The translations under genes and the position numbers were made by a program. The notes beneath the pieces were generated by a model. It did no database searches, was not told the origin of the DNA, and saw only the letters and a list, made by a program, of their open reading frames with translations. A stretch of 32,000 bases of DNA. It comes from Myxococcales bacterium (GTDB taxonomy: Bacteria; Myxococcota_A; Polyangia; Nannocystales; Nannocystaceae). The stretch's first letter is position 1. The number at the start of each line of letters is the position of its first letter. Below, piece by piece: positions 1 to 9,442 of the stretch. The stretch lies in NCBI GenBank assembly GCA_020633315.1, contig JACKDV010000012.1, positions 1-32,000 of the forward strand, in the 5' to 3' direction.

Positions 1-29
1 GCTATTGTCCATGACGTCGAGCCGCTGCG

Positions 30-1532
30 TCAGTGCAGCGGGGCACCAAGCCGGGCCCGCTGTACGTCGGCCTCGTCGATCTCGTAGCCCCGCTCGTCGA
101 CCAGCCAGGTTCGCCAGCCGTTGGCATCCCCCTCCACGAAGGCCAGGCGAACCCGCGACCAGGGGTCGGTCCAGCCTGGGGCGGACCCCACGACGATCTC
201 GAGCGGAACGTCTGCGTCCCGCGCGGCCCTCTCGAGGTGGTGGAGCGTGGGCTCGTCTCGGTGGACCCATGGGGCCGGGATGAGCTCGTCGAGGAATCCC
301 CAGCGTAGGCGCACCGCGCCGTGCAATCGGCCGTACTCGTAGAGGGCATACAGCGACTTGACGTTGGCATCGAGGCGGCGCCGCAGCTTCTCGTGATCGC
401 CCTCGCGTAGGTAGGTGGCCAGCTTCTTCGGATCGCCGAATGGCCGGCTGATGCCACAGGACCCCTGGATGAGCAGCTCGGGCGTGATCTTCAGGGTCCG
501 CCCCCGCTTGTTGATCCTCTTGGACTTCTGCGGCGGCCCCAGCTCGGCGAGGTGGCGAGAGCCCGGGTCGAACGCCAGCGCTCGCAGCAGTGCCCGGACG
601 TCCATGGCGCCGATGAGGTCGAAGGTCGCCAGACGCTCGCGGGCCGCCGCCAGCTCGCCCTCGCCGATGAAGGTCACTAGCTCGTGGGCGGCCACATCGA
701 GCAGCGCCAACGCCCGGGGGTCCTTGGCCGGAAAGGCGTAGAGGAGCACTCGACGGAGCTTGGCCAGCTCCGCGGCATGGGCGAGGCGCTTGCGTTCGAA
801 AGTCTCGCGGGCACGCGCGATCTCCTCGGGAGAGCTTCGGTGGAGGGCAGGGTTGCGACGGAGACCCTCGATTCGATCTCGTACCGCGCGACGGGTGTCG
901 AGCAGGAGCTTCCCCGGGTCGGCGATCATCGACCAGCGCTCGTCGGGCCGGATGGTCACGGCCGCGCTCTTGCGCTTGAAGCTGGGCGTGTCCGCGGTGA
1001 GAGAGAACCACTTGGTGCGCGCGGCCACGAAGTCGATGACCTCCTGAGGCTGCATCGGCTCACCGTGGGCATCGAGCACGGCCAGGGCGAGGCGTTGCGC
1101 AGACCAACTGCGGAGGTTGGCGTCCTTCCAGGCTTCGTCCAGTTCCTCGAAGCGGAGCGCGACCTCGGGTCCGGGGAGGGGCTCGAGCTTCGGGGGAGCG
1201 GGGGTGGGGCGAGAGACCTTCGGAGGGCGTAGGCCGAGGCGGAAGACCCAGAGGTGGAGGTCGTCGTCGTGGGGGTCCAGGCTATAGTGGTCGCCCTCAC
1301 GGTAGACGGGAGCCCGGCCTGGCTTGCAGCGCTTGAGCGAAAGGAGGGCACGCTCAGCCGGTGCGAGCCCGATCTCGGCGAACCGGGCTGCGACCTCGAC
1401 GAGGGTCATGGGCTCGCCATGCTCGAGCAGGGTGACCAGGAGCAGCGAGTAGGTGTTGGCCTCGCGGTGATCCTTGACCGCGTCGAGGCTGGGCACGTCG
1501 ATGCCCAGGGCATCACACCACGTGTTGCTCAT
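30..1532 (-). CDS. Hypothetical 500-aa island protein with two similar winged-helix/HARE-HTH-like modules
   Basis: ORF 30..1637 trimmed to the ATG at 1532, which has AGGA 8 nt upstream and sits 23 nt after the stop of the preceding small ORF. Strong GC3 bias. Internal duplication: 'LLEHGEPMTLVEVAARFAEIGL' versus 'VLDAHGEPMQPQEVIDFVAARTK'. No catalytic motif recognised. Confidence 0.6.
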   Translation of the reverse strand: MSNTWCDALGIDVPSLDAVKDHREANTYSLLLVTLLEHGEPMTLVEVAARFAEIGLAPAERALLSLKRCKPGRAPVYREGDHYSLDPHDDDLHLWVFRLGLRPPKVSRPTPAPPKLEPLPGPEVALRFEELDEAWKDANLRSWSAQRLALAVLDAHGEPMQPQEVIDFVAARTKWFSLTADTPSFKRKSAAVTIRPDERWSMIADPGKLLLDTRRAVRDRIEGLRRNPALHRSSPEEIARARETFERKRLAHAAELAKLRRVLLYAFPAKDPRALALLDVAAHELVTFIGEGELAAARERLATFDLIGAMDVRALLRALAFDPGSRHLAELGPPQKSKRINKRGRTLKITPELLIQGSCGISRPFGDPKKLATYLREGDHEKLRRRLDANVKSLYALYEYGRLHGAVRLRWGFLDELIPAPWVHRDEPTLHHLERAARDADVPLEIVVGSAPGWTDPWSRVRLAFVEGDANGWRTWLVDERGYEIDEADVQRARLGAPLH

Positions 1533-1555
1533 CGTGTGGATCCTGCTCGTGGCAG

Positions 1556-1813
1556 TCAGTCGTCGAAGACCTCGGCGAGGGACGTCGCCGTGACCGCACG
1601 ATCGAACCATCGCTGGAGGAGGTTCTCGTCCTTGCACGCAGCCACCCGCTCGCGCAGCTCGTCAGTGGGCTCGAGCCCCCGCGTGTCGAGCAGTCGCTCC
1701 AGCATGCGGGCCATGCCCTTGGTCTCGCCCTGGAGGATGCCGTCGGCCCTACCTTCGGCGAGGCCCTCGGCACGGCCCTTGGCGAGGAGCTCGTCTCGGA
1801 TGGTGGCGTACAT
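1556..1813 (-). CDS. Free-standing Rpn C-terminal-tail paralogue (RpnS-like small protein, 85 aa)
   Basis: It starts MYATIRDELLAKGRAEG, identical to an internal segment of the upstream Rpn protein. It ends ...DELRERVAACKDENLLQRWFDRAVTATSLAEVFDD, which parallels the Rpn C-terminus. It lies 15 nt downstream of the Rpn stop. Confidence 0.55.
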   Translation of the reverse strand: MYATIRDELLAKGRAEGLAEGRADGILQGETKGMARMLERLLDTRGLEPTDELRERVAACKDENLLQRWFDRAVTATSLAEVFDD

Positions 1814-1815
1814 CT
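1773..1815. repeat. 43-bp direct repeat, copy 1 (identical to 2007-2049)
   Basis: cggcccttggcgaggagctcgtctcggatggtggcgtacatct is read identically at both positions. It spans the start codon of the small ORF. Confidence 0.9.
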
Positions 1816-1828
1816 CGGCCGAACAGCG

Positions 1829-2842
1829 TCAATCGTCGAAGATCTCCGTGAGGGACGACGCTCTCACGGCGCGATCGAACCACCGCTGGAGCAGGTCCTC
1901 GTCCTCGCAGGTGGCTACTCGTTCACGCAGCTCATCGGTGAGCGTGAGCCCACGGTTGTCCATCAATCGCTCCAGCACCCGAACAATGCGGGCGTGGCCC
2001 TCGGCGCGGCCCTTGGCGAGGAGCTCGTCTCGGATGGTGGCGTACATCTGGCGGGTTTCCTTGCTGGCGGACTCGAGCAGTATACCGCGGACCGGGGACT
2101 CGGGCCCGAACACGGAGAGGAAGTAGGTCAGGAACGGCTTGACGGCCTTGGCACCCCAAGTCTCGGCGACCACGTTGCCCAGGACCCCAAGCAAGGCGGC
2201 GCGTTCGCCGTCGGTGGCTTCGGGGTGGTGGTACAGCCACAGCATGGTACGTGCCATCTCGGCCAGGGCGAGGCCGCGGTTGCGGACGAGCTGGTCGTGG
2301 GTGACCTGATCCCCGAGGACCGACTCCCCGAGGTCGTCGACCGCGAACGCGAGCTCGACGGGGGAGGGGAAGGCTTCGAGCAGCTCGGGCGGCACGTCGA
2401 GCATCTCGGAGAGGCGTTGCGGCATCGTCCAGCCCTTCGGCCCCTGGTAGAGCAGCACGGGAGCGACGAGCGGGACCTTCTTGGTGCCCTTGTGTTCGCT
2501 GAGATAGCGCTCGTAGAGCCGTCCCACGTAGACGACGAAGCGAGCCGCCATGACCGGGTCGGGTGTGCTCTGGTGCTCGAGCACGACGTAGATCGAGATC
2601 CTGCGCGTGGAGCCGCTCAGCGCGATGGAGTACAGGATGTCGCTGGTACGGTGCTCGAGCTCGGGATCGATGAACGAGCTCGGCTCGACGCGGAGCGTCT
2701 TCCAGTCGAGCCGGCTGGTGAGCGCCGCTGGAAGCACCTGGCGCAGCTCGGCGGCTGCGGCCTCGGGATTGGTGAAGATCCGCTTCACGAGGCCGTCGTG
2801 CGGGTTGTGGGCGACGACGTCGTCGGACTTGCGCTTGGTCAT
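1829..2842 (-). CDS. Rpn family recombination-promoting nuclease / putative transposase (YhgA-like, PD-(D/E)XK)
   Basis: N-terminal 'HDGLVKRIF' and 'SDILYS...IYVVLEHQSTPDPVMAARFVVY' match the YhgA/Transposase_31 signature as I recall it. Typical C-terminal tail 'DELRERVA.C.DEDLLQRWFDRAV'. Confidence 0.8.
   Translation of the reverse strand: MTKRKSDDVVAHNPHDGLVKRIFTNPEAAAAELRQVLPAALTSRLDWKTLRVEPSSFIDPELEHRTSDILYSIALSGSTRRISIYVVLEHQSTPDPVMAARFVVYVGRLYERYLSEHKGTKKVPLVAPVLLYQGPKGWTMPQRLSEMLDVPPELLEAFPSPVELAFAVDDLGESVLGDQVTHDQLVRNRGLALAEMARTMLWLYHHPEATDGERAALLGVLGNVVAETWGAKAVKPFLTYFLSVFGPESPVRGILLESASKETRQMYATIRDELLAKGRAEGHARIVRVLERLMDNRGLTLTDELRERVATCEDEDLLQRWFDRAVRASSLTEIFDD
2007..2049. repeat. 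43-bp direct repeat, copy 2 (inside the rpn gene, spanning the internal ATG at 2047-2045)
   Basis: Identical to 1773-1815. Flanking sequence in the two tail copies has clearly diverged. Confidence 0.9.
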
Positions 2843-2905
2843 CGAGGCTCTCGGCGGACTCTATAGCGTGCGAGGGATTGGCGGGCATTCGGGACTGGGT
2901 CGAGA

Positions 2906-4135
2906 TCACCCACCGCGGGTCGCATGCTCGATCGCCGCGCCCGCTCTCTCGAGGCCTTCCTGCAGCGCCCGGTCGTGCAGGTGGGCGTAGCGTGCGGTGG
3001 TCTGCGGCGACTTGTGCCCGAGCACCTTGCCCACGACCGACAGCGGGACCCCGGCCGAGACCGCGTCGCTGGCCCATGAGTGACGCAGATCATGGAGCCG
3101 CACGTCCTCGAGCCCCGCATGGGCCCGCAGCGTCCGCCAGGCCCGCTGGACGTTCGAGAGCCGCGTCCCCGACTCGCTGGTGCAGACCAGCCCGATCCGC
3201 CCCACCTTGCCCCGTTCCGCGCGCAAGAACTCCACGGCCTGCCGTGTGAGGGGGACCGACTTGGCGCCCGTCTTGGAGGTGGGCAGCCGCAGTTGTCGAT
3301 GGCGCCAGTCCACATATTCCCAGCGCAGGTCCAGCACCTCGCCCAGCCGCATGCCCGTCAGCGATAACAGCCGAAAGAGCTGCACGTATCCGGGCGCGAG
3401 CCCTCCTTTGGTCTGGGGCCCCGCCTCGAGCGCATGGACGAGGGCGGCCTCGAGCCGCTGCCGCTCCTCGGGGGACAGGTAGCGCTCGACCTTCCGATCG
3501 CTGGTGGCCTTGAGCCGAGCCGCCGGATTTTGAGTGATGGCGCCGAGATCTTCCGCGTGTCGAAAGCAGATCCGCAGCACGTCTCGGAGCTTGCGCCATG
3601 TCCCGGCCGGAACCTCCCGCTGGATCCGCTCCAGGTCCGCGGCCGTGACCGCGTCCACCCGCGCGCGTATGAAGCTCGTCCGCGATCGCAGGTGCTTGCT
3701 GATGCGGTACCGGTCGGTCTTGATCGCGCCCTCGGACTTGGCCGTGCCGAGTTGCCCCGCGACCTTGCAGTAGCTGCCGAGGTACCAGCCCTCGTCACCC
3801 TTCTCGCCGAGGAGATCGACCATCCGCAGGGCACCGCGCTCGCGTCGTCGTTCCTGCTGGGGGTCCTGGCCCTGGTCGACCGCGCTGAGAACGGTACGTG
3901 CCATCGCTCGGGCCTGGGGGATGGTCAGCTCGAGCCCGCCGAGCTTCTGGCGGCGCTGGGTCCCGCTCACGCGGTAGCGCACGAAGAACGTGGTCGCCCC
4001 CTTGGGGGTGATGCGAAGGTGCAGGGTCCGGACCGACTGCTTGCCGCTGTCGTCCCAAAGCTCGATGCGACGGCCCTCTTCACTGGCTTGGACTCGAGCT
4101 TGGCGGATGGCGGCGGTGGTCAGCGGCACCTCCAT
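2906..4135 (-). CDS. int: Tyrosine-type site-specific integrase (P4-like, with N-terminal arm-binding DUF4102-type domain)
   Basis: C-terminal catalytic motifs 'HDLRHSWAS' and 'LGHKSPQTTARYAHL', with an upstream 'TGMRLGEVLDLRW' Arg box. N-terminus 'LHLRITPKGATTFFVRYRVSG' is typical of P4-type integrases. The start is taken at the ATG at 4135; the ORF is open to 4186. Confidence 0.85.
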   Translation of the reverse strand: MEVPLTTAAIRQARVQASEEGRRIELWDDSGKQSVRTLHLRITPKGATTFFVRYRVSGTQRRQKLGGLELTIPQARAMARTVLSAVDQGQDPQQERRRERGALRMVDLLGEKGDEGWYLGSYCKVAGQLGTAKSEGAIKTDRYRISKHLRSRTSFIRARVDAVTAADLERIQREVPAGTWRKLRDVLRICFRHAEDLGAITQNPAARLKATSDRKVERYLSPEERQRLEAALVHALEAGPQTKGGLAPGYVQLFRLLSLTGMRLGEVLDLRWEYVDWRHRQLRLPTSKTGAKSVPLTRQAVEFLRAERGKVGRIGLVCTSESGTRLSNVQRAWRTLRAHAGLEDVRLHDLRHSWASDAVSAGVPLSVVGKVLGHKSPQTTARYAHLHDRALQEGLERAGAAIEHATRGG

Positions 4136-4290
4136 AGGATATCTCGGGGGCACACCGGGGGCACAACCTTTCGCAAGAGGCCGCAATCCGCGCGCAAGGC
4201 GCGATGTCCAGAATGCGCCTAAATAGGCCGGTTTAAGGCGAAATTCAAACTTGCGGCCGCTTCAACAAACCCCCGCAAACCCGCATGGCT

Positions 4291-4337
4291 CTGCCCTGAT
4301 AAGGCAGAGGTCGGAGGTTCAAGTCCTCCCACGCCCA
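4291..4337 (+). other. 3' fragment of tRNA-Ile(GAU): anticodon arm through discriminator. Putative att core / attR.
   Basis: ctgcc-CTGATAA-ggcag (anticodon GAT), variable loop aggtc, T arm ggagg-ttcaagt-cctcc, acceptor 3' strand cacgccc, discriminator a. Upstream sequence (ccgcaaacccgcatggct) has no D arm and no matching 5' acceptor strand gggcgtg. Confidence 0.7.
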
Positions 4338-4342
4338 CTAGG

Positions 4343-4367
4343 AAAGCCCCGCGTAGCGGGGCTTTTT
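4343..4367 (+). terminator. Intrinsic terminator following the tRNA fragment
   Basis: aaagccccgc-gta-gcggggcttt perfect GC-rich stem followed by a T5 tract. Confidence 0.75.
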
Positions 4368-4556
4368 CGTTTGGGCGGGGGCGGCTGTGGGCCATCTGGA
4401 CCGGCGCGGGTCCACTGCGTGTCAAGGCTCGGGAGACACCACGACCGATAGCGATTGCGGGAGGTCGGGACAAGGCCAGGAATCGCCCACGGAGCGCAGA
4501 ACGAGGGGCGGATGGTTGGTCAGGCGGCGAGACTCGTAGGCCAACGGACTCGTCCG

Positions 4557-5612
4557 TCAGTCGTACCAGTCGAGGCAAGTGAGCGCCTCTTCGGTCATCC
4601 CATAGACCCCAGCATTCGCGGTCGGTCGAAGCACGTTCCGTCGGAGCCATCCCTGGATCGTGCTCGCTGGAACTCCCCGGGAGAGCAACTGCTGACGCGT
4701 CATCGTCCCGTCCGTCGTCGTCTTCTTGGAGGCAGTCGTCTTCTTGGAGGCAGTCGTCTTCTTGGAGGCAGTCGTCTTCTTGGAGGCGGTCGTCTTCTTG
4801 GAGGCGGTCGTCTTCTTGGAGGCGGTCGTCTTCTTGGAGGCGGTCGTCTTCTTGGAGGCAGTCGTCTTCTTGGAGGCGCCCCTCCTCCCGCGATTCGACT
4901 CTACCTCGTCATCGATGACCACGCCGAAGATCTCCGATAGCTCCCCGACCAACCGACGCTCATCCTCGATCTCTCCGACGATCTGTGCCGCCGACTCCAC
5001 CAATTGCCCCGGCTCGACTCCTCGCAGCTCGAACAAGAGCTGAGGCTGTTCGTCGAGCCGAATCCCCACGCCGTACATCGCGGCCGCCACGTGCTTGCAC
5101 ATCGTCGCCCAGTCGGGACAACTGCATCCGAGGCGAATGGCACGTGGCTCGGGGAACAGCCCCTTGCCGGGCTCGGTGACGGCCTCCATGACCTCGGCGC
5201 CCACGCGGCCCTCGAGCAGCTCGATCACCGACGACAGTCGACCCGAGCACCGCTTGCGCAGCGCAGACCAGCGCGCACGGGGGACCGGATCGATCTGCAC
5301 GCGGACCTCGTACAGCGAGTGGCCGGACACCAGCGCAGTGATCTCACCCGGGGCGATCCACAGGTCGAGCACCGCGCCCTGTCGAAGGTAGGTGCGCCCG
5401 CGTGGCAGGCGGTTGGCGTAGTCGTGATACCGCTCGAGGTTGTGGCACCACGCCTTTCCCCAGATGGTCTGGGCGAAGCTGCGGCCCTCGCCGCGAACGG
5501 GCGCGGGATCGCGGCCGAGTCGCTGGTGGAGCTGACGGCGGGTCGGGGCCGGCTCGTAGTCGCGCTCGGGGCCCCAGGAGGACCAGAAGCTGCGGCGTCT
5601 CCTACGAGGCAT
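4557..5612 (-). CDS. SWIM zinc-finger protein (partner of the SNF2 helicase) with a lysine-rich ASKKTT repeat linker and a C-terminal HTH-like tail
   Basis: CxC...CxH motif 'CSCPDWATMCKHVAAAMY'. N-terminal region 'FAQTIWGKAWCHNLE...RLPRGRTYLRQGAV...VSGHSLYEVRVQI' is typical of bacterial stand-alone SWIM proteins. The ATG at 5612 overlaps the upstream gene's stop by 11 nt. Confidence 0.8.
   Translation of the reverse strand: MPRRRRRSFWSSWGPERDYEPAPTRRQLHQRLGRDPAPVRGEGRSFAQTIWGKAWCHNLERYHDYANRLPRGRTYLRQGAVLDLWIAPGEITALVSGHSLYEVRVQIDPVPRARWSALRKRCSGRLSSVIELLEGRVGAEVMEAVTEPGKGLFPEPRAIRLGCSCPDWATMCKHVAAAMYGVGIRLDEQPQLLFELRGVEPGQLVESAAQIVGEIEDERRLVGELSEIFGVVIDDEVESNRGRRGASKKTTASKKTTASKKTTASKKTTASKKTTASKKTTASKKTTASKKTTASKKTTTDGTMTRQQLLSRGVPASTIQGWLRRNVLRPTANAGVYGMTEEALTCLDWYD
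4717..4878. repeat. Nine tandem copies of an 18-bp unit (gtcgtcttcttggaggc[a/g]) encoding (ASKKTT)x9 in the SWIM protein
   Basis: Read directly. The only variation is a/g at the last unit position, in the pattern a,a,a,g,g,g,g,a,g. Confidence 0.95.
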
Positions 5613-8265
5613 CGAGCGCGCGCTCCAGGTCGAGTCGTACGGTGGCCATGAGCTGCTGTGTGCTCATCTCGGTGAGCGAAGCGGCCCCGTCGAACGACAG
5701 GACCTCGTCGGCCAGCGCTTGCTTGCTCGCGATCATGGCATCGATTCGCTCCTCGAGGGTGCCTCGGCACACGAGCTTGTGGACCAGGACGTTGCGCCGC
5801 TGGCCGATTCGATACGCTCGATCGGTGGCCTGGTTCTCGATGGCCGGGTTCCACCAGCGATCGAAGTGCACCACGTGCGAGGCGGCGGTCAGGTTGAGGC
5901 CCGTGCCGCCGGCCTTGAGCGAGATGACGAAGAACGGAGGCCCGTCCTCGTCCTGGAACTGCTCGACGAGCTGGGCGCGACGGCGCACGGGGGTCCGTCC
6001 GTCCAGCCGGAGCCCGGGTCGCCCGAAGGCGTTGGCGAGGAACTGCTCGAGTGGGCGCGTGGCCTCGCGGAACTGGGTGAACACGAGGACCCGCTGCTGG
6101 CGCGCTGTCCACGACTCGCAGAGCTCGGCCAGACGCTTGAGCTTGCCGCTGCTCGTCGGGTCCCAGACCCCATCGCCCAGCCAGTGCGAGGGATGGTTGC
6201 AGATCTGCTTGAAGCGCTGGAGATAGGCGAGGATCAGGCCGCGACGCGCCATGCCGTCGGCCTGCTCGACGTCACCGCGCAGCGAGTCCACCGCATCCTG
6301 GTACAGCGCCGCCTGTTGCTTCGCGAGCCCACAGTAGGCGACGACCTCGGTCTTGTCGGGCAGGTCTGGCACGATGGAGGGATCGGTCTTGAGCCGACGC
6401 AAGATGTAGGGCGCCACCAGCCGGCGGACGGGACCGTAGCCCTCTCCGCGCCGCTCCGTGGCTCGCACCGCGCGGCGAAACGCCGCCCGGCTGCCCAGCA
6501 GACCCGGGCACGCGAAGTCCATCAGCGACCACAGATCCTCGATGCTGTTCTCGATCGGCGTGCCCGTGAGCACCAGCCGCGCCCGGGCCCGTAGCTTCTT
6601 GGTGGCGCGTGCTTGATGGGTCCCTGGGTTCTTGATCGCCTGCGCCTCGTCGAGTATCGCCAGACCCCAGTCGTGATCGAGCAACCACTGGGTCCGAGCG
6701 AGCGTACCGTAGGTGGTCAATACCAGATCGACCCCGTCCACCTCGCGCCGAAGGGTCGCGATGCCATCGGGGCCCGCCGAGCGATGAGCGATGCGCACCT
6801 GCAGGTCGGGCGCGAACCGGGCCGCCTCGGCCTGCCAGTTGCTCAGCAGTGAGGCGGGAACGACCACCAGATGGGGACCTCCGACCCCCTCGTCGTCGAG
6901 CACCAGCAGCAACGCGAGGATCTGGATCGTCTTGCCCAGCCCCATGTCGTCGGCCAGACACCCGCCGAGCCCGAGGTGACAGAGCAGCCTCGCCCACGCC
7001 ACTCCCTTGCGTTGGTAGCTGCGCAGCTCGCCTACGAGGCGAGGGCCGGGATCGCAGCTCTGTCGCGTCTGCCCCAGCTGCTCGAGCACCCCGCGTAGCC
7101 ACTTGCCGGCAGACACTGCGGTCCACACCGGGCCGGAGCCCGTCGCGTCGTCGTCGGGGGACGACTCCGTGCTTGCTCCGGCCAGCCACCGCATGCCCTC
7201 GGCGAACGACAGCATGCCTTCCCGGGCTGCTTGCTCGATCGCGGCGAAGTGCTCGAGTGCTTGCCGGAGCCGCTCGGGATCGACCGCGACCCACCGCCCG
7301 CGAACCAATCGCAGGCCTGCGGCACCTCGAAGCAGCGCCCGTCGATCCTTGGCCGACAGCGTGAGACCGTCGAGCGCGAGCGAGACGTCGAAGTCGACGA
7401 GGCTCGCGAAGCCGAGCGTGCTGGGCTGCCGCTGGCCGACCGTGGCGTTGACTCGCACACGGCGAGCACCCCCATGCCACCAGTCGGGCACGCGCACCAG
7501 CACGCCCGCGGCCTCGCAGGCGGGAATCTGCTGCAGGAACGCGAACGCCTCCTCGGGGGTCCAACGAACCGCACGGTAGGCCTGACCGCTCGAGACGAGC
7601 TCGGCCATCAGAGGGCTGGTCGCCGCGGCGAGCTCGAGAGGGCGAAGCAATCGCAGCAGTGCCTGTCGATCGTCGGCAAGGGTGGTGAGCGCGTGCTCGA
7701 GCGTGCGGTGCAGGGGGCGACCCGAAGAATCGAGACCGTCGACGTAGGTCGCCACGAACGCGAACGGGTAGCTCGGATCGCGCTTGTTCTCGGCGAGATG
7801 GAAGTACACCCGACCGATGCCGTGCCAGGCGGCGTTCTGGCCCTCGAGCCATGGCCCGAGCTCGCCTCCGTGTCGACCGACGGCATGCCGTGCGGCTTGC
7901 TCCATCTGCCGCCAAGCATCGTCGAGCGTGGAGCGATCCACGTACTCGGCACCGAGCATCGGGGGGACCTGCAGCAACAAGCGATCGAATGTGCCGTCGG
8001 GGGGCACCAAGGGCTCGTCCTCGTTCAGGGTCCCCGTGCGACAGAGCACTTCGTAGAAGGCCCGGCCGAGTGCTCGCCCGAACGCGAGCTGTGGCGGCAG
8101 CTCGGCCCGGAGCATGGGGCCCGCCAGGTACAGCAGGCCAGGGCCCAGACCCCTCCCGAACGCTCGTCGCAGCGCGGCGGTGGAACGCGTGGCTGTGGGG
8201 GCGGTCTCGGCATCCACCCGCAGACGGCCACGGGGAGTGATCGACAGCGTCGGTGTGCTCGACAT
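5602..8265 (-). CDS. SNF2/SWI2-family DEAD-like helicase (ATPase) with a long N-terminal SNF2-associated region
   Basis: Motif I 'LADDMGLGKT', motif II 'LDEAQAIKN', motif III 'LTGTPIEN', and helicase-C motifs 'SLKAGGTGLNLTAASHVVHFDRWWNPAIENQATDRAYRIGQ'. The start is set at the ATG at 8265 (MSSTPTLS...). The ORF extension to 8556 overlaps the cysK-like 3' end and has Arg/Pro/Trp-rich junk composition. Confidence 0.85.
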   Translation of the reverse strand: MSSTPTLSITPRGRLRVDAETAPTATRSTAALRRAFGRGLGPGLLYLAGPMLRAELPPQLAFGRALGRAFYEVLCRTGTLNEDEPLVPPDGTFDRLLLQVPPMLGAEYVDRSTLDDAWRQMEQAARHAVGRHGGELGPWLEGQNAAWHGIGRVYFHLAENKRDPSYPFAFVATYVDGLDSSGRPLHRTLEHALTTLADDRQALLRLLRPLELAAATSPLMAELVSSGQAYRAVRWTPEEAFAFLQQIPACEAAGVLVRVPDWWHGGARRVRVNATVGQRQPSTLGFASLVDFDVSLALDGLTLSAKDRRALLRGAAGLRLVRGRWVAVDPERLRQALEHFAAIEQAAREGMLSFAEGMRWLAGASTESSPDDDATGSGPVWTAVSAGKWLRGVLEQLGQTRQSCDPGPRLVGELRSYQRKGVAWARLLCHLGLGGCLADDMGLGKTIQILALLLVLDDEGVGGPHLVVVPASLLSNWQAEAARFAPDLQVRIAHRSAGPDGIATLRREVDGVDLVLTTYGTLARTQWLLDHDWGLAILDEAQAIKNPGTHQARATKKLRARARLVLTGTPIENSIEDLWSLMDFACPGLLGSRAAFRRAVRATERRGEGYGPVRRLVAPYILRRLKTDPSIVPDLPDKTEVVAYCGLAKQQAALYQDAVDSLRGDVEQADGMARRGLILAYLQRFKQICNHPSHWLGDGVWDPTSSGKLKRLAELCESWTARQQRVLVFTQFREATRPLEQFLANAFGRPGLRLDGRTPVRRRAQLVEQFQDEDGPPFFVISLKAGGTGLNLTAASHVVHFDRWWNPAIENQATDRAYRIGQRRNVLVHKLVCRGTLEERIDAMIASKQALADEVLSFDGAASLTEMSTQQLMATVRLDLERALDAS

Positions 8266-8308
8266 CGCAGGGACCCACAGAGGCTGCCCTGTATTGGGGT
8301 GGCTGTGC

Positions 8309-8512
8309 AAGGATCTCGGCCCTTCGAGTGTCCGTGACCCCGCGCTCGGGCCATCGCAGGGGTAGGATCTCGTCCTCGTATGCGGCCACCCGCTCGCGCA
8401 GCTCGACGGCGATGAGCCACTCCAGCACGCGGGCCATGGCGCTGGTCTTGCCCAGCGCCCGATCCTCGATGACGCCCTTGGCCTTCCCCTCCAGCGATGA
8501 GCTGCTCTCGGC
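8309..8512 (-). pseudogene. Orphan remnant of an Rpn C-terminal tail (third copy in the window), with no nuclease domain
   Basis: Minus-strand translation 'LEGKAKGVIEDRALGKTSAMARVLEWLIAVELRERVAAYEDEILPLRWPERGV' aligns with 'AEGRADGILQGETKGMARMLERLLDTRGLEPTDELRERVAACKDENLLQRWFDRAV' of ORF 1556-1813. There is no in-frame stop before it runs into the SNF2 gene. Confidence 0.5.
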
Positions 8513-9442
8513 TCAGCCGCCAAGCCACCCCTTCGACAAGTAGCGGTCCATCCCATCGGGCAGGACGGCCACCACCGGCTCGTCCCCGCCGATGCGCTCC
8601 GCCACCCGCAGCGCCGCGACCACGGCCGTGCCGGCCGAGCCTCCGACGAACAGCCCCTCCTCGCGGATGAGCCTCCGGGTCATCGCGAAGGACTCCTCGT
8701 CCGAGACGGTCTCCGCCTCGTGCACCACCGAGCGATCGAGGTTGGTGGGCGCGACCGATCCCCCGATCCCCTCCACGGCATAGCGCCCGTCGGGACCCAG
8801 CTCCCCGGTGCGCACCCAGTGCGCCAGCACGGATCCCTCGGGATCGGCGAGCACGAGCCGCGCGCTCGATCCCCGCGCCGCCATGCATCGCCCCACTCCG
8901 GTCAGCGTGCCCCCCGTGCCCGCTCCCGCCACGAAGGCTGCCAGGCGCCCGTCCACCTGTTGCAGGATCTCGGGCCCGGTCCCGTGCTCGTGAGCGGCAA
9001 CGTTGACGGGGTTCTCGAATTGATCGGTCAGGAACCACCCGCGCTCTGCCGCCATGGCCCTCGCCACGTTCTGGAAATTGCGAGGATCGGAAGGCGGCGC
9101 GTCGTCGGTCACGATCACCTGGGCCCCCATCGCCGCGAGCGTGCGTCGCTTGTCCTCGGACATCTTCTGCGGCATCACGCAGACCAGCCGGTACCCATGG
9201 TGAGCCGCGACGAGGGCGAGCCCGATCCCGGTGTTGCCGGCGGTCGCCTCGATGAGCGTGGCGCCCGGCTCCAGCACGCCGCGCGCCCTCGCATCCTCCA
9301 CGATCGACACCGCGATCCGATCCTTGATGCTCCCGCTGGGGTTGAGGTGCTCGCACTTGACGAGCACCGGGGCGCCACGGCGGGGAATGTGTCGAAGCGG
9401 CAGGAGCGGCGTGTTCCCCACGGCATCGAGCAGGCTCGGCAT
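8513..9442 (-). CDS. cysK: Cysteine synthase / O-acetylserine sulfhydrylase family PLP enzyme
   Basis: 'NPSGSIKDR' (PLP lysine), 'TAGNTGIGLA', and 'AGTGGTLTG' motifs. Full-length 309 aa. Confidence 0.8.
   Translation of the reverse strand: MPSLLDAVGNTPLLPLRHIPRRGAPVLVKCEHLNPSGSIKDRIAVSIVEDARARGVLEPGATLIEATAGNTGIGLALVAAHHGYRLVCVMPQKMSEDKRRTLAAMGAQVIVTDDAPPSDPRNFQNVARAMAAERGWFLTDQFENPVNVAAHEHGTGPEILQQVDGRLAAFVAGAGTGGTLTGVGRCMAARGSSARLVLADPEGSVLAHWVRTGELGPDGRYAVEGIGGSVAPTNLDRSVVHEAETVSDEESFAMTRRLIREEGLFVGGSAGTAVVAALRVAERIGGDEPVVAVLPDGMDRYLSKGWLGG

Follow-up and report, generated by a model that had tools for sequence, protein, structure and literature searches.

Why should a nuclease gene be followed, within a few nucleotides, by a second copy of its own end? 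The question is raised by a 32,000-nucleotide (nt) stretch of a Myxococcales bacterium of the family Nannocystaceae (assembly GCA_020633315.1, contig JACKDV010000012.1, positions 1 to 32,000), here called the window. In it a full-length Rpn/YhgA-like PD-(D/E)XK nuclease gene of 337 amino acids (rpnL, 1829..2842; every feature named here lies on the minus strand unless a plus strand is given) is separated by a 15-nt spacer (1814..1828) from an 85-residue open reading frame (ORF; rpnSs, 1556..1813). The rpnL stop codon is the TGA at 1831-1829 and the small ORF opens with the ATG at 1813-1811, exactly where an earlier sequence-only reading of this DNA had placed them. That reading had also taken the small ORF for a paralogue of the last 72 residues of the nuclease, and BLASTP bears it out (E = 6e-34). 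The locus probably encodes an Rpn toxin–antitoxin module, anti-phage in role and working as in Escherichia coli, in which the antitoxin-like tail is available twice: as an intragenic RpnS reading frame of 72 residues (1829..2047, delimited by its paralogy to rpnSs and by DNA alignment) and as the free-standing, RpnS-like rpnSs.

Such systems have been described in E. coli, where the full-length protein RpnL is toxic and is neutralized by RpnS, made from an internal start in the same gene (Zhong et al. 2023, PNAS, PMC10400941). The two products share a helix with hypervariable repeats of four residues, one of them hydrophobic and the others charged or Gly, that begin 8-20 residues past the Met, and in RpnC the addition of one repeat to a single partner abolishes neutralization (PMC10400941). 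Second, free-standing RpnS genes are also on record, namely ypaA (rpnESs) 3' of rpnE and rpnCSs 3' of rpnC, and RpnESs has been detected as a protein in E. coli (PMC10400941). A commentary by Koonin (PMC10400984) repeats the existence of a second free-standing RpnS copy and suggests that it may add regulatory flexibility. The earlier suspicion that the window shows an undescribed or variant layout was therefore mistaken, as the rpnE-ypaA and rpnC-rpnCSs pairs had already been published (PMC10400941). Later publications on RpnS or DUF4351 were also sought; the library consulted contained nothing beyond the 2023 paper and the commentary.

The large gene is an Rpn/YhgA-like PD-(D/E)XK gene, as first read. 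A hidden Markov model (HMM) search over 1829-2842 placed its product in the Rpn family (PF04754/COG5464) above the curated threshold, with PF04754 matching residues 13-192 at E = 1.2e-38 (133.2 bits, the cutoff being 21), and a source record (P0013) annotates it as 'Rpn family recombination-promoting nuclease/putative transposase'. In the protein search the window's own Rpn was the sole match that could be identified as coming from this organism. TIGR01784 gave a partial match just under its cutoff (51.8 versus 52.1). The NCBIfam equivalog model for RpnA was matched only in part (64.8 versus 583), so the window Rpn is not an RpnA orthologue. In an alignment with E. coli RpnA and RpnE, to which the protein is 27-29% identical, the catalytic residues D68 (2641-2639), E89 (2578-2576) and Q91 (2572-2570), together spanning 2570..2641 as read from the codons, fall in invariant columns with D63/E82/Q84 of RpnA and their counterparts in RpnE. 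Nothing credible emerged when Protein Data Bank (PDB) sequences were searched, either with the Rpn protein or with a profile of the tail.

Comparative evidence for an internal start at ATG 2047 is good. The candidate internal translation initiation site (iTIS; 2045..2047) is the codon for Met266, which aligns within 1-2 residues of the internal start of RpnA, M244, a site verified by mutation (Zhong et al. 2023, PMC10400941). Upstream of it lies a Shine–Dalgarno (SD)-like string, AAGGAAA (2056..2062), which the sequence-only reading had singled out; the hexamer AAGGAA indeed occurs once in the 1,014-nt coding sequence of rpnL, 10-15 nt before ATG 2047. We compared 15 tail copies for which DNA is available, drawn from four genomes (the window, Paraliomyxa miuraensis, Myxococcota metagenome-assembled genome (MAG) bin.52 and a Nannocystaceae MAG). 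The codon at the Met266 position is ATG in 11 of them and TTG in the other four, with TTG accounting for just 5.4% of Leu codons in these genes; among wider protein homologues, M, L or V occupies the position wherever it can be read. In 13 of the 15 tails the start is preceded, at 10-15 nt, by GGAG or GGAA; the motif is absent from two, the window small ORF and the Paraliomyxa copy Ss-c (AACGAGAC). An in-frame internal start with a ribosome-binding site ahead of the tail, the hallmark of a gene within a gene, is therefore present in rpnL at the sequence level, and the internal Met, with ATG or TTG in 15 of 15 copies, is a credible and conserved candidate start.

The nucleotides that follow the start are conserved beyond what the protein would require. 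Over the 15 copies and four genomes, codons 2-10 of the tail show zero synonymous variation. Arg within this stretch is written CGA in all 15 copies, though CGA is a minor codon (16% of Arg codons locally) and invariant arginines further along the tail use three to four different codons. Among four- to sixfold degenerate codons, four of four are monomorphic in codons 2-10 versus 4 of 28 in the C-terminal block (Fisher p = 0.002). These patterns argue for nucleotide-level constraint on the start region throughout the clade. A conserved RNA structure was considered as the cause and rejected: the RNAalifold consensus reached just -2.4 kcal/mol with no covarying pairs, and the window sequence around the internal start folds no better than its shuffles (z = +1.3). 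An open, unstructured initiation region may instead be the reason for the frozen synonymous sites. An Rfam scan of 1-9000 at gathering thresholds had no match, and a scan of 1300-3100 for sigma-70 promoters and intrinsic terminators found none, such a scan being uninformative for a myxobacterium; an internal promoter has been reported for rpn in E. coli.

The two tails of the window are alike in a patchy way. Against Rpn residues 266-337 the small ORF shows 56 identities over 85 positions, with one 13-residue gap immediately past the shared MYATIRDELLAKGRAEG, and the DNA alignment is 82% identical over 219 aligned nt. Homology between the small ORF and the internal copy begins just 2 nt before the ATG; the spacer carries neither an SD nor homology to the region upstream of the iTIS. 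A 43-bp block, with one copy in rpnL (2007..2049) and one at the start of the small ORF (1773..1815), is exactly identical and forms a maximal run (permutation p = 0.003-0.004). Matches number 55 of 57 in the first 57 nt versus 124 of 162 in the rest (Fisher p = 5e-4), and synonymous divergence (dS) between the tails rises from 0.07 over the first 19 codons to 0.90 beyond them. The claim that this block is fully identical and the remainder diverged thus proved right.

The start block also marks the window pair out from other copies. ELLAKGRAEG is common to the window pair alone among the 15 tails, and codons 2-13 are identical at 36 of 36 nt within the pair versus 29-34 of 36 to all other copies. 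Just the first ~57 nt group the window pair together; over its C-terminal 156 nt the small ORF shares 80-85% identity with tails of Paraliomyxa but 76% with the neighbouring rpnL tail. Measured against Paraliomyxa, dS is 0.35-0.39 for the nuclease part, 0.37-0.53 for the small ORF and 0.6-0.95 for the 3' tail of rpnL. Because the dS of the rpnL 3' tail exceeds that of the nuclease part, rpnL reads as a mosaic, its breakpoint lying within the repeats or close to them. These comparisons point to local exchange between the tail copies of the window, and they indicate that the two are old paralogues, partly homogenized, rather than a recent local duplicate. The identical block had been put down to gene conversion or to selection on the start region; both appear to contribute, exchange within the window pair and constraint clade-wide. 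The closest orthologue of the rpnL product, P0014 (341 residues, 88% identity), has a tail that is small-ORF-like at RAEGLAKGRAGMARMLERLLDTRGL, rpnL-like at TLTDELRERLATCEDEDLLQRWFDRAV and small-ORF-like again at TATTLDEVFDD; it looks like a hybrid of both window tails and would be further evidence of tail recombination.

In a metagenome-assembled genome, a duplication or an identity of 43 bp could arise in assembly, and contigs of related MAGs often break inside rpn genes (L007-L010, L012), a sign that these repeats disturb assemblers. This explanation is practically negligible here. The junction of Rpn, spacer and small ORF is the same in two independent metagenome assemblies, one 99.07% identical to the window over 1,504 nt without gaps (L025) and one 100% identical over 508 nt (L026). 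The former covers both tail copies and contains the 43-bp block as well, the two tail copies are just 82% identical overall, and the cultured isolate P. miuraensis SMH-27-4 shows a syntenic arrangement. The 14 differences between the window and L025 over the 1,504 aligned nt all fall within 2417-2516, in the nuclease domain; such a cluster suggests a short recombination patch rather than scattered mutation.

Several measures of its sequence show the small ORF to be genuine and, as had been proposed, an RpnS-like paralogue of the Rpn tail that stands on its own. Purifying selection is indicated by the ratio of nonsynonymous to synonymous rates (dN/dS; 0.16-0.35 overall), which comes to 0.16 when the ORF is compared with the rpnL tail and to 0.27-0.35 when it is compared with tails of Paraliomyxa. 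An identical protein exists in public records (P0001), the protein is intact and identical in the independent strain-level assembly L025, and Paraliomyxa has a positional orthologue ahead of the same 500-residue gene that follows rpnSs in the window. A decayed third tail copy (8309..8511; found by tblastn and by blastn against Paraliomyxa tails and read from the sequence) supplies the contrast: it has an internal deletion and has lost its start codon and part of a helix, while keeping conserved start-region nucleotides (CCGAGAGCAGCTCATCGCTG). It is an internal control for the look of an unselected tail copy. The conclusion that the small ORF is a real gene follows from dN/dS, the positional orthologue, the independent assemblies and this contrast. 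The decayed copy sits between the end of a gene resembling pyridoxal phosphate (PLP) enzymes and an SNF2 helicase gene, overlapping a spurious 5' extension of a 984-residue ORF (5602-8556). Neither Pfam nor NCBIfam, PHROGs or PADLOC gave a meaningful match for the small ORF; weak matches to FliH, EncFtn-like and VMAP-M15 were dismissed as effects of the Gly/charged repeats or as lying far under the family cutoffs.

What distinguishes the two tails as proteins is the length of the repeat region. The small ORF has ~39 nt (13 residues) more than the internal copy in its xxGx repeats (AEG-LAEG-RADG-ILQG-ETKG; ~1718..1756, from protein and DNA alignment), a gap whose placement is ambiguous by ~3 residues. 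In the tails examined the xxGx units begin 11-14 residues past the Met, inside the published range of 8-20 residues for the four-residue repeats. Measured from the Met, the conserved MLERL block is 13 to 49 residues away in the 15 copies, and 14 of these distances fit 13+4n; the window rpnL tail, at 20 residues, is the lone exception. AlphaFold2 (AF2) models predict a long helix at residues 2-32 followed by three short helices for the 72-residue tail (predicted local distance difference test (pLDDT) 79), and a helix at residues 3-45 followed by short helices for the 85-residue protein (pLDDT 72). The 13 extra residues of the small ORF are thus predicted to lengthen the first helix.

Unequal repeat number recurs in every pair of intragenic and free-standing tails that we examined. 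The two differ in four of four myxobacterial pairs and, for the RpnE tail versus YpaA, in five of five E. coli strains (56/61, 76/61, 76/65, 88/81 and 76/61 residues), where the gap amounts to one to four repeats in either direction (L014, L021-L024). With nine pairs (five from E. coli, four myxobacterial) forming a small, non-random sample, the mismatch in nine of nine is a lead and not a finding. Neither the main text of the 2023 paper nor the commentary discusses a repeat mismatch between the downstream copy and its neighbour.

Related loci show the same elements in greater number. A syntenic island of P. miuraensis (L001; JAOVZF010000154.1, 2923-7243) holds two rpn genes and an array of at least six tails, in the order integrase, Rpn1, a 147-residue tail-tail fusion, three intact tails and one degenerate tail, Rpn2, one tail and the 500-residue gene. 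Its tails were called at 109, 65, 69 and 49 residues, the last being 73 residues long when read from the ATG at 7022; the xxGx repeat number is different in every tail, from 0 to 8, and most keep an internal SD region of the form ..SKETRQ-ATG. In MAG bin.52, the tail that comes after one Rpn gene agrees with the end of that Rpn protein in all of its last 52 residues and differs from it by exactly one repeat (L002), and another locus has a free-standing tail beside the remnant of an rpn 5' end, with no adjacent intact rpn (L003). Two further Rpn genes (L006, L012) have no downstream tail. In this myxobacterial clade free-standing tails appear to have expanded into arrays, the tails in them being of different sizes, and into multi-tail fusion proteins. 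Several contigs of related MAGs (L007-L010, L012) end inside rpn, typically at residue ~220-255, just before the tail, as would be expected if multi-copy tails break short-read assemblies; rpn and tail copy numbers in MAGs are thus likely underestimated.

When 1.8 billion representatives were searched with a profile of the tail, 10,059 clusters matched at E<=1e-3. In the best 150 of these matches, 44 proteins are of 130 residues or fewer and 78 are longer than 130 residues with at least two matched stretches; the latter look like tandem tails, six of them having been inspected by eye. Many metagenomic proteins, among them P0072, P0073, P0076, P0078, P0079 and P0082, are 140-340 residues long and consist of two to four tandem RpnS-like tails with no nuclease domain, an architecture described neither in the main text of the 2023 Rpn paper nor in the commentary. 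So many short and tandem-tail matches mean that free-standing tails are common. A distant homologue of the window Rpn whose tail has the WFDRA motif (P0069) passes DUF4351 (26.4 bits versus a cutoff of 25), and through it the window tails appear, by transitivity, to be remote relatives of DUF4351.

The reading we favour extends the E. coli work to this locus on several points: that the nuclease is toxic and can be neutralized, that the module acts against phage, that the internal start is translated, and what a repeat mismatch entails. The rpnL product would be a PD-(D/E)XK DNA endonuclease with a helical C-terminal tail of ~72 residues. Initiation at ATG 2047 would yield the tail alone, as RpnS; by its long first helix RpnS would pair with the tail of RpnL and hold the nuclease inactive until the cell is infected. 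RpnSs (1813-1556) would be a second tail, with the same first 17 residues and C-terminal helices and with a first helix 13 residues longer. Since a single-repeat mismatch abolishes neutralization in RpnC, we infer that RpnSs does not merely supply the adjacent gene product with more antitoxin. We favour the view that RpnSs is a tail of another specificity, retained and expressed as such, which would also be a recombination partner for the rpnL tail, and it may not neutralize the neighbouring RpnL at all.

Other roles for the downstream copy were weighed, and they need not be mutually exclusive with this one or with each other. RpnSs could be a second dose of cognate antitoxin that binds RpnL despite the longer helix and decouples antitoxin supply from transcription of the toxin. 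Its place immediately 3' of rpnL on the same strand, where it is probably co-transcribed, would suit this role, as would the 17 residues and C-terminal helices that the tails share and the regulatory flexibility suggested for a second copy (PMC10400984). The 13 additional residues in the first helix, the loss of RpnC neutralization after a single-repeat mismatch (PMC10400941) and a C-terminal part that is 76% identical in DNA to the rpnL tail, below its identity to tails of another genus, speak the other way, and we hold a second dose to be possible but doubtful. Alternatively, the downstream tail may matter mainly as DNA: it would be a cassette from which recombination replaces the rpnL tail or alters its length, and so changes toxin–antitoxin specificity, with the protein secondary. 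The mosaic rpnL, the flanking homology offered by an identical 5' block and a conserved 3' end, the at least six differently sized tails between and after the two rpn genes of Paraliomyxa and the tail-tail fusion represented by its 147-residue protein would all be expected of such a donor. A dN/dS of 0.16-0.35 with an intact ORF in two strains argues for selection on the protein, E. coli RpnESs is translated, and free-standing tails also occur with no intact rpn beside them (L003); we judge a chiefly DNA-level role rather unlikely.

It is very improbable that rpnSs is just what a tandem duplication left behind, without function and decaying towards a pseudogene. Such a leftover would explain the missing SD ahead of the small ORF, and it would agree with the E. 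coli counterpart, which RefSeq marks as a pseudogene or partial in several genomes and which many strains do not have. Yet the ORF is intact, its dN/dS is well below 1 at a dS of ~0.9 to its paralogue, its protein sequence is identical in an independent strain-level assembly, and the truly decayed copy at 8309-8511 shows what neutral decay looks like here.

Several observations weigh against our preferred reading, that of a module with an intragenic and a free-standing RpnS acting as in E. coli. No SD-like sequence precedes the small ORF, so that its translation would have to be coupled to termination of rpnL or be SD-independent, and the spacing of ~10 nt from AAGGAA to ATG 2047 is at the long end of the usual range. 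The 13-residue indel is not a multiple of four. The rule on repeat mismatch has been tested experimentally for RpnC alone, with one added repeat, and with repeat number hypervariable a mismatch in nine of nine pairs could arise with no selection for mismatch. Neither tail reaches any Pfam family, DUF4351 included, even at E<=10, or the NCBIfam tail family, no PADLOC model matches the module, and a Foldseek search of both AF2 tail models against the PDB returned no match at E<4 and did not return the RpnAS crystal structure, 7TH0, small all-helical queries being weak in such searches. 7TH0 was present in the copy of PDB sequences searched.

Beyond the favoured reading, a more general proposal is tentative and, on balance, unlikely: free-standing RpnS copies would be systematically mismatched in helix length to their neighbours and, rather than being spare antitoxin, would form either a cassette library for re-pairing by recombination at the start block or a pre-emptive neutralizer of variant or foreign RpnL. 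If the cassette-library version were true, their function would be comparable to that of the orphan cassette arrays of polymorphic toxin systems. More immediately, the locus extends the published E. coli arrangement of an internal antitoxin and a downstream free-standing copy to Myxococcota, and it adds independent comparative support for the internal start through start-codon conservation, including the rare TTG, and through the frozen synonymous sites that follow. It also sharpens the question of what the downstream copy is for, given an apparently constant mismatch and the RpnC result. The cultured P. miuraensis, with two rpn genes and at least six tails of different length at one locus, would be a good system in which to pursue it.

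The surroundings of the module fit an integrative island that carries it as cargo next to the integrase, in the genome of a Nannocystineae-like myxobacterium. A tyrosine integrase gene (2906..4186; Pfam Phage_integrase and Arm-DNA-bind_3, phrog_1), syntenic with Paraliomyxa, lies next to rpnL. A partial tRNA followed by a GC hairpin and a T-run lies at 4275..4368 on the plus strand (Rfam tRNA positions 10-63 of 71, 26.9 bits versus a gathering threshold of 29); ARAGORN found no complete tRNA there. Its anticodon loop is Ile-GAU-like; the integrase gene is ~90 nt away, and the partial tRNA still belongs to the stretch that is syntenic in Paraliomyxa. It is probably an attachment-site-side remnant of the island. 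An integrase and a partial tRNA with hairpin adjoining the module fit island cargo, in keeping with the published view that rpn genes move horizontally.

Immediately downstream of rpnSs lies a gene for a conserved hypothetical protein of 500 residues (30..1532, probable start ATG 1532; from ORF and homologue searches), for which Pfam, NCBIfam, PHROG and PADLOC gave no match. The protein is very widespread: its homologues at 58-82% identity fill more than 1,100 clusters, and one of them is fused to an excisionase-type helix-turn-helix (HTH) domain. The protein adjoins Rpn in three myxobacterial genomes (the window, L001 and L020) and adjoins Fic and AbiEii genes in metagenome contigs L017-L019. 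A 'RecN' label on the Paraliomyxa copy, from one source, is supported by nothing found here and was set aside. On the far side of the integrase, a large SNF2-family helicase gene (5602-8265) has a helicase region resembling the PADLOC models ZorD, DpdE and DrmD, and directly downstream of it a 351-residue protein (4557-5612) carries nine tandem ASKKTT copies near its C-terminal end.

Several known systems invite comparison. DUF4351 (PF14261) and the RefSeq name 'Rpn/YhgA-type helix-turn-helix domain-containing protein' are database names for free-standing or C-terminal Rpn tails; the window tails differ from DUF4351 members in that its HMM is not reached at E<=10. The resemblance to RpnA and RpnAS lies in the retained catalytic D-E-x-Q, in an internal start 1-2 residues from RpnA M244 and in a common motif M-(Y)-x-T-I-x-[DE]-x-L-x-x-x-G, in which T269, I270, L274 and G278 are invariant. 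RpnAS folds as a small helical bundle with a long first helix, and a long first helix followed by short helices is predicted for the window tails. The window tails have no detectable sequence or Foldseek match to 7TH0, and RpnA, unlike the window gene, has no downstream free-standing copy.

Polymorphic toxin systems such as CdiA-CT/CdiI and Rhs have orphan C-terminal toxin/immunity cassette arrays. By analogy, the window and those arrays both combine a main gene with extra, variable C-terminal modules, with the conserved block as a possible anchor for recombination, and the Paraliomyxa array (L001) may be likened to such orphan arrays. They differ in that the Rpn cassette is the antitoxin-like part of the toxin itself and that no secretion system is involved.

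The remaining comparison is with rpnE-ypaA. Rechecked in E. coli K-12, ypaA starts 12 nt past rpnE, has a near-identical 5' end and has one extra repeat, KLEG; many E. coli strains are without it, and RefSeq labels it variously as pseudogene or partial, 'hypothetical protein' or 'Rpn/YhgA-type helix-turn-helix domain-containing protein'. The differences are that the window tails are 72 and 85 residues long versus 49-61 residues in K-12 and carry an extra C-terminal motif (LLQRWFDRAVTA..L.EVFDD), that the E. coli duplication includes the SD whereas the window duplication does not, and that the window indel is 13 residues, not 4n. The E. coli downstream copy clusters with its own upstream tail, whereas the C-terminal part of the window small ORF is closer to another genus; such clustering is an observation from E. 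coli and not a strict definition. In both species, however, an Rpn PD-(D/E)XK gene has an internal start for its own tail and is followed on the same strand by a paralogue of that tail, after a spacer of 12 nt in K-12 and 15 nt in the window. In both, the tail copies are near-identical at the 5' end, diverged at the 3' end and different in the four-residue repeat number of the first helix. As a same-strand ORF directly 3' of an rpn gene and a paralogue of its tail, the small ORF has the attributes by which free-standing RpnSs genes are recognized, and the window is a new myxobacterial instance of the published layout rather than a new kind of system.

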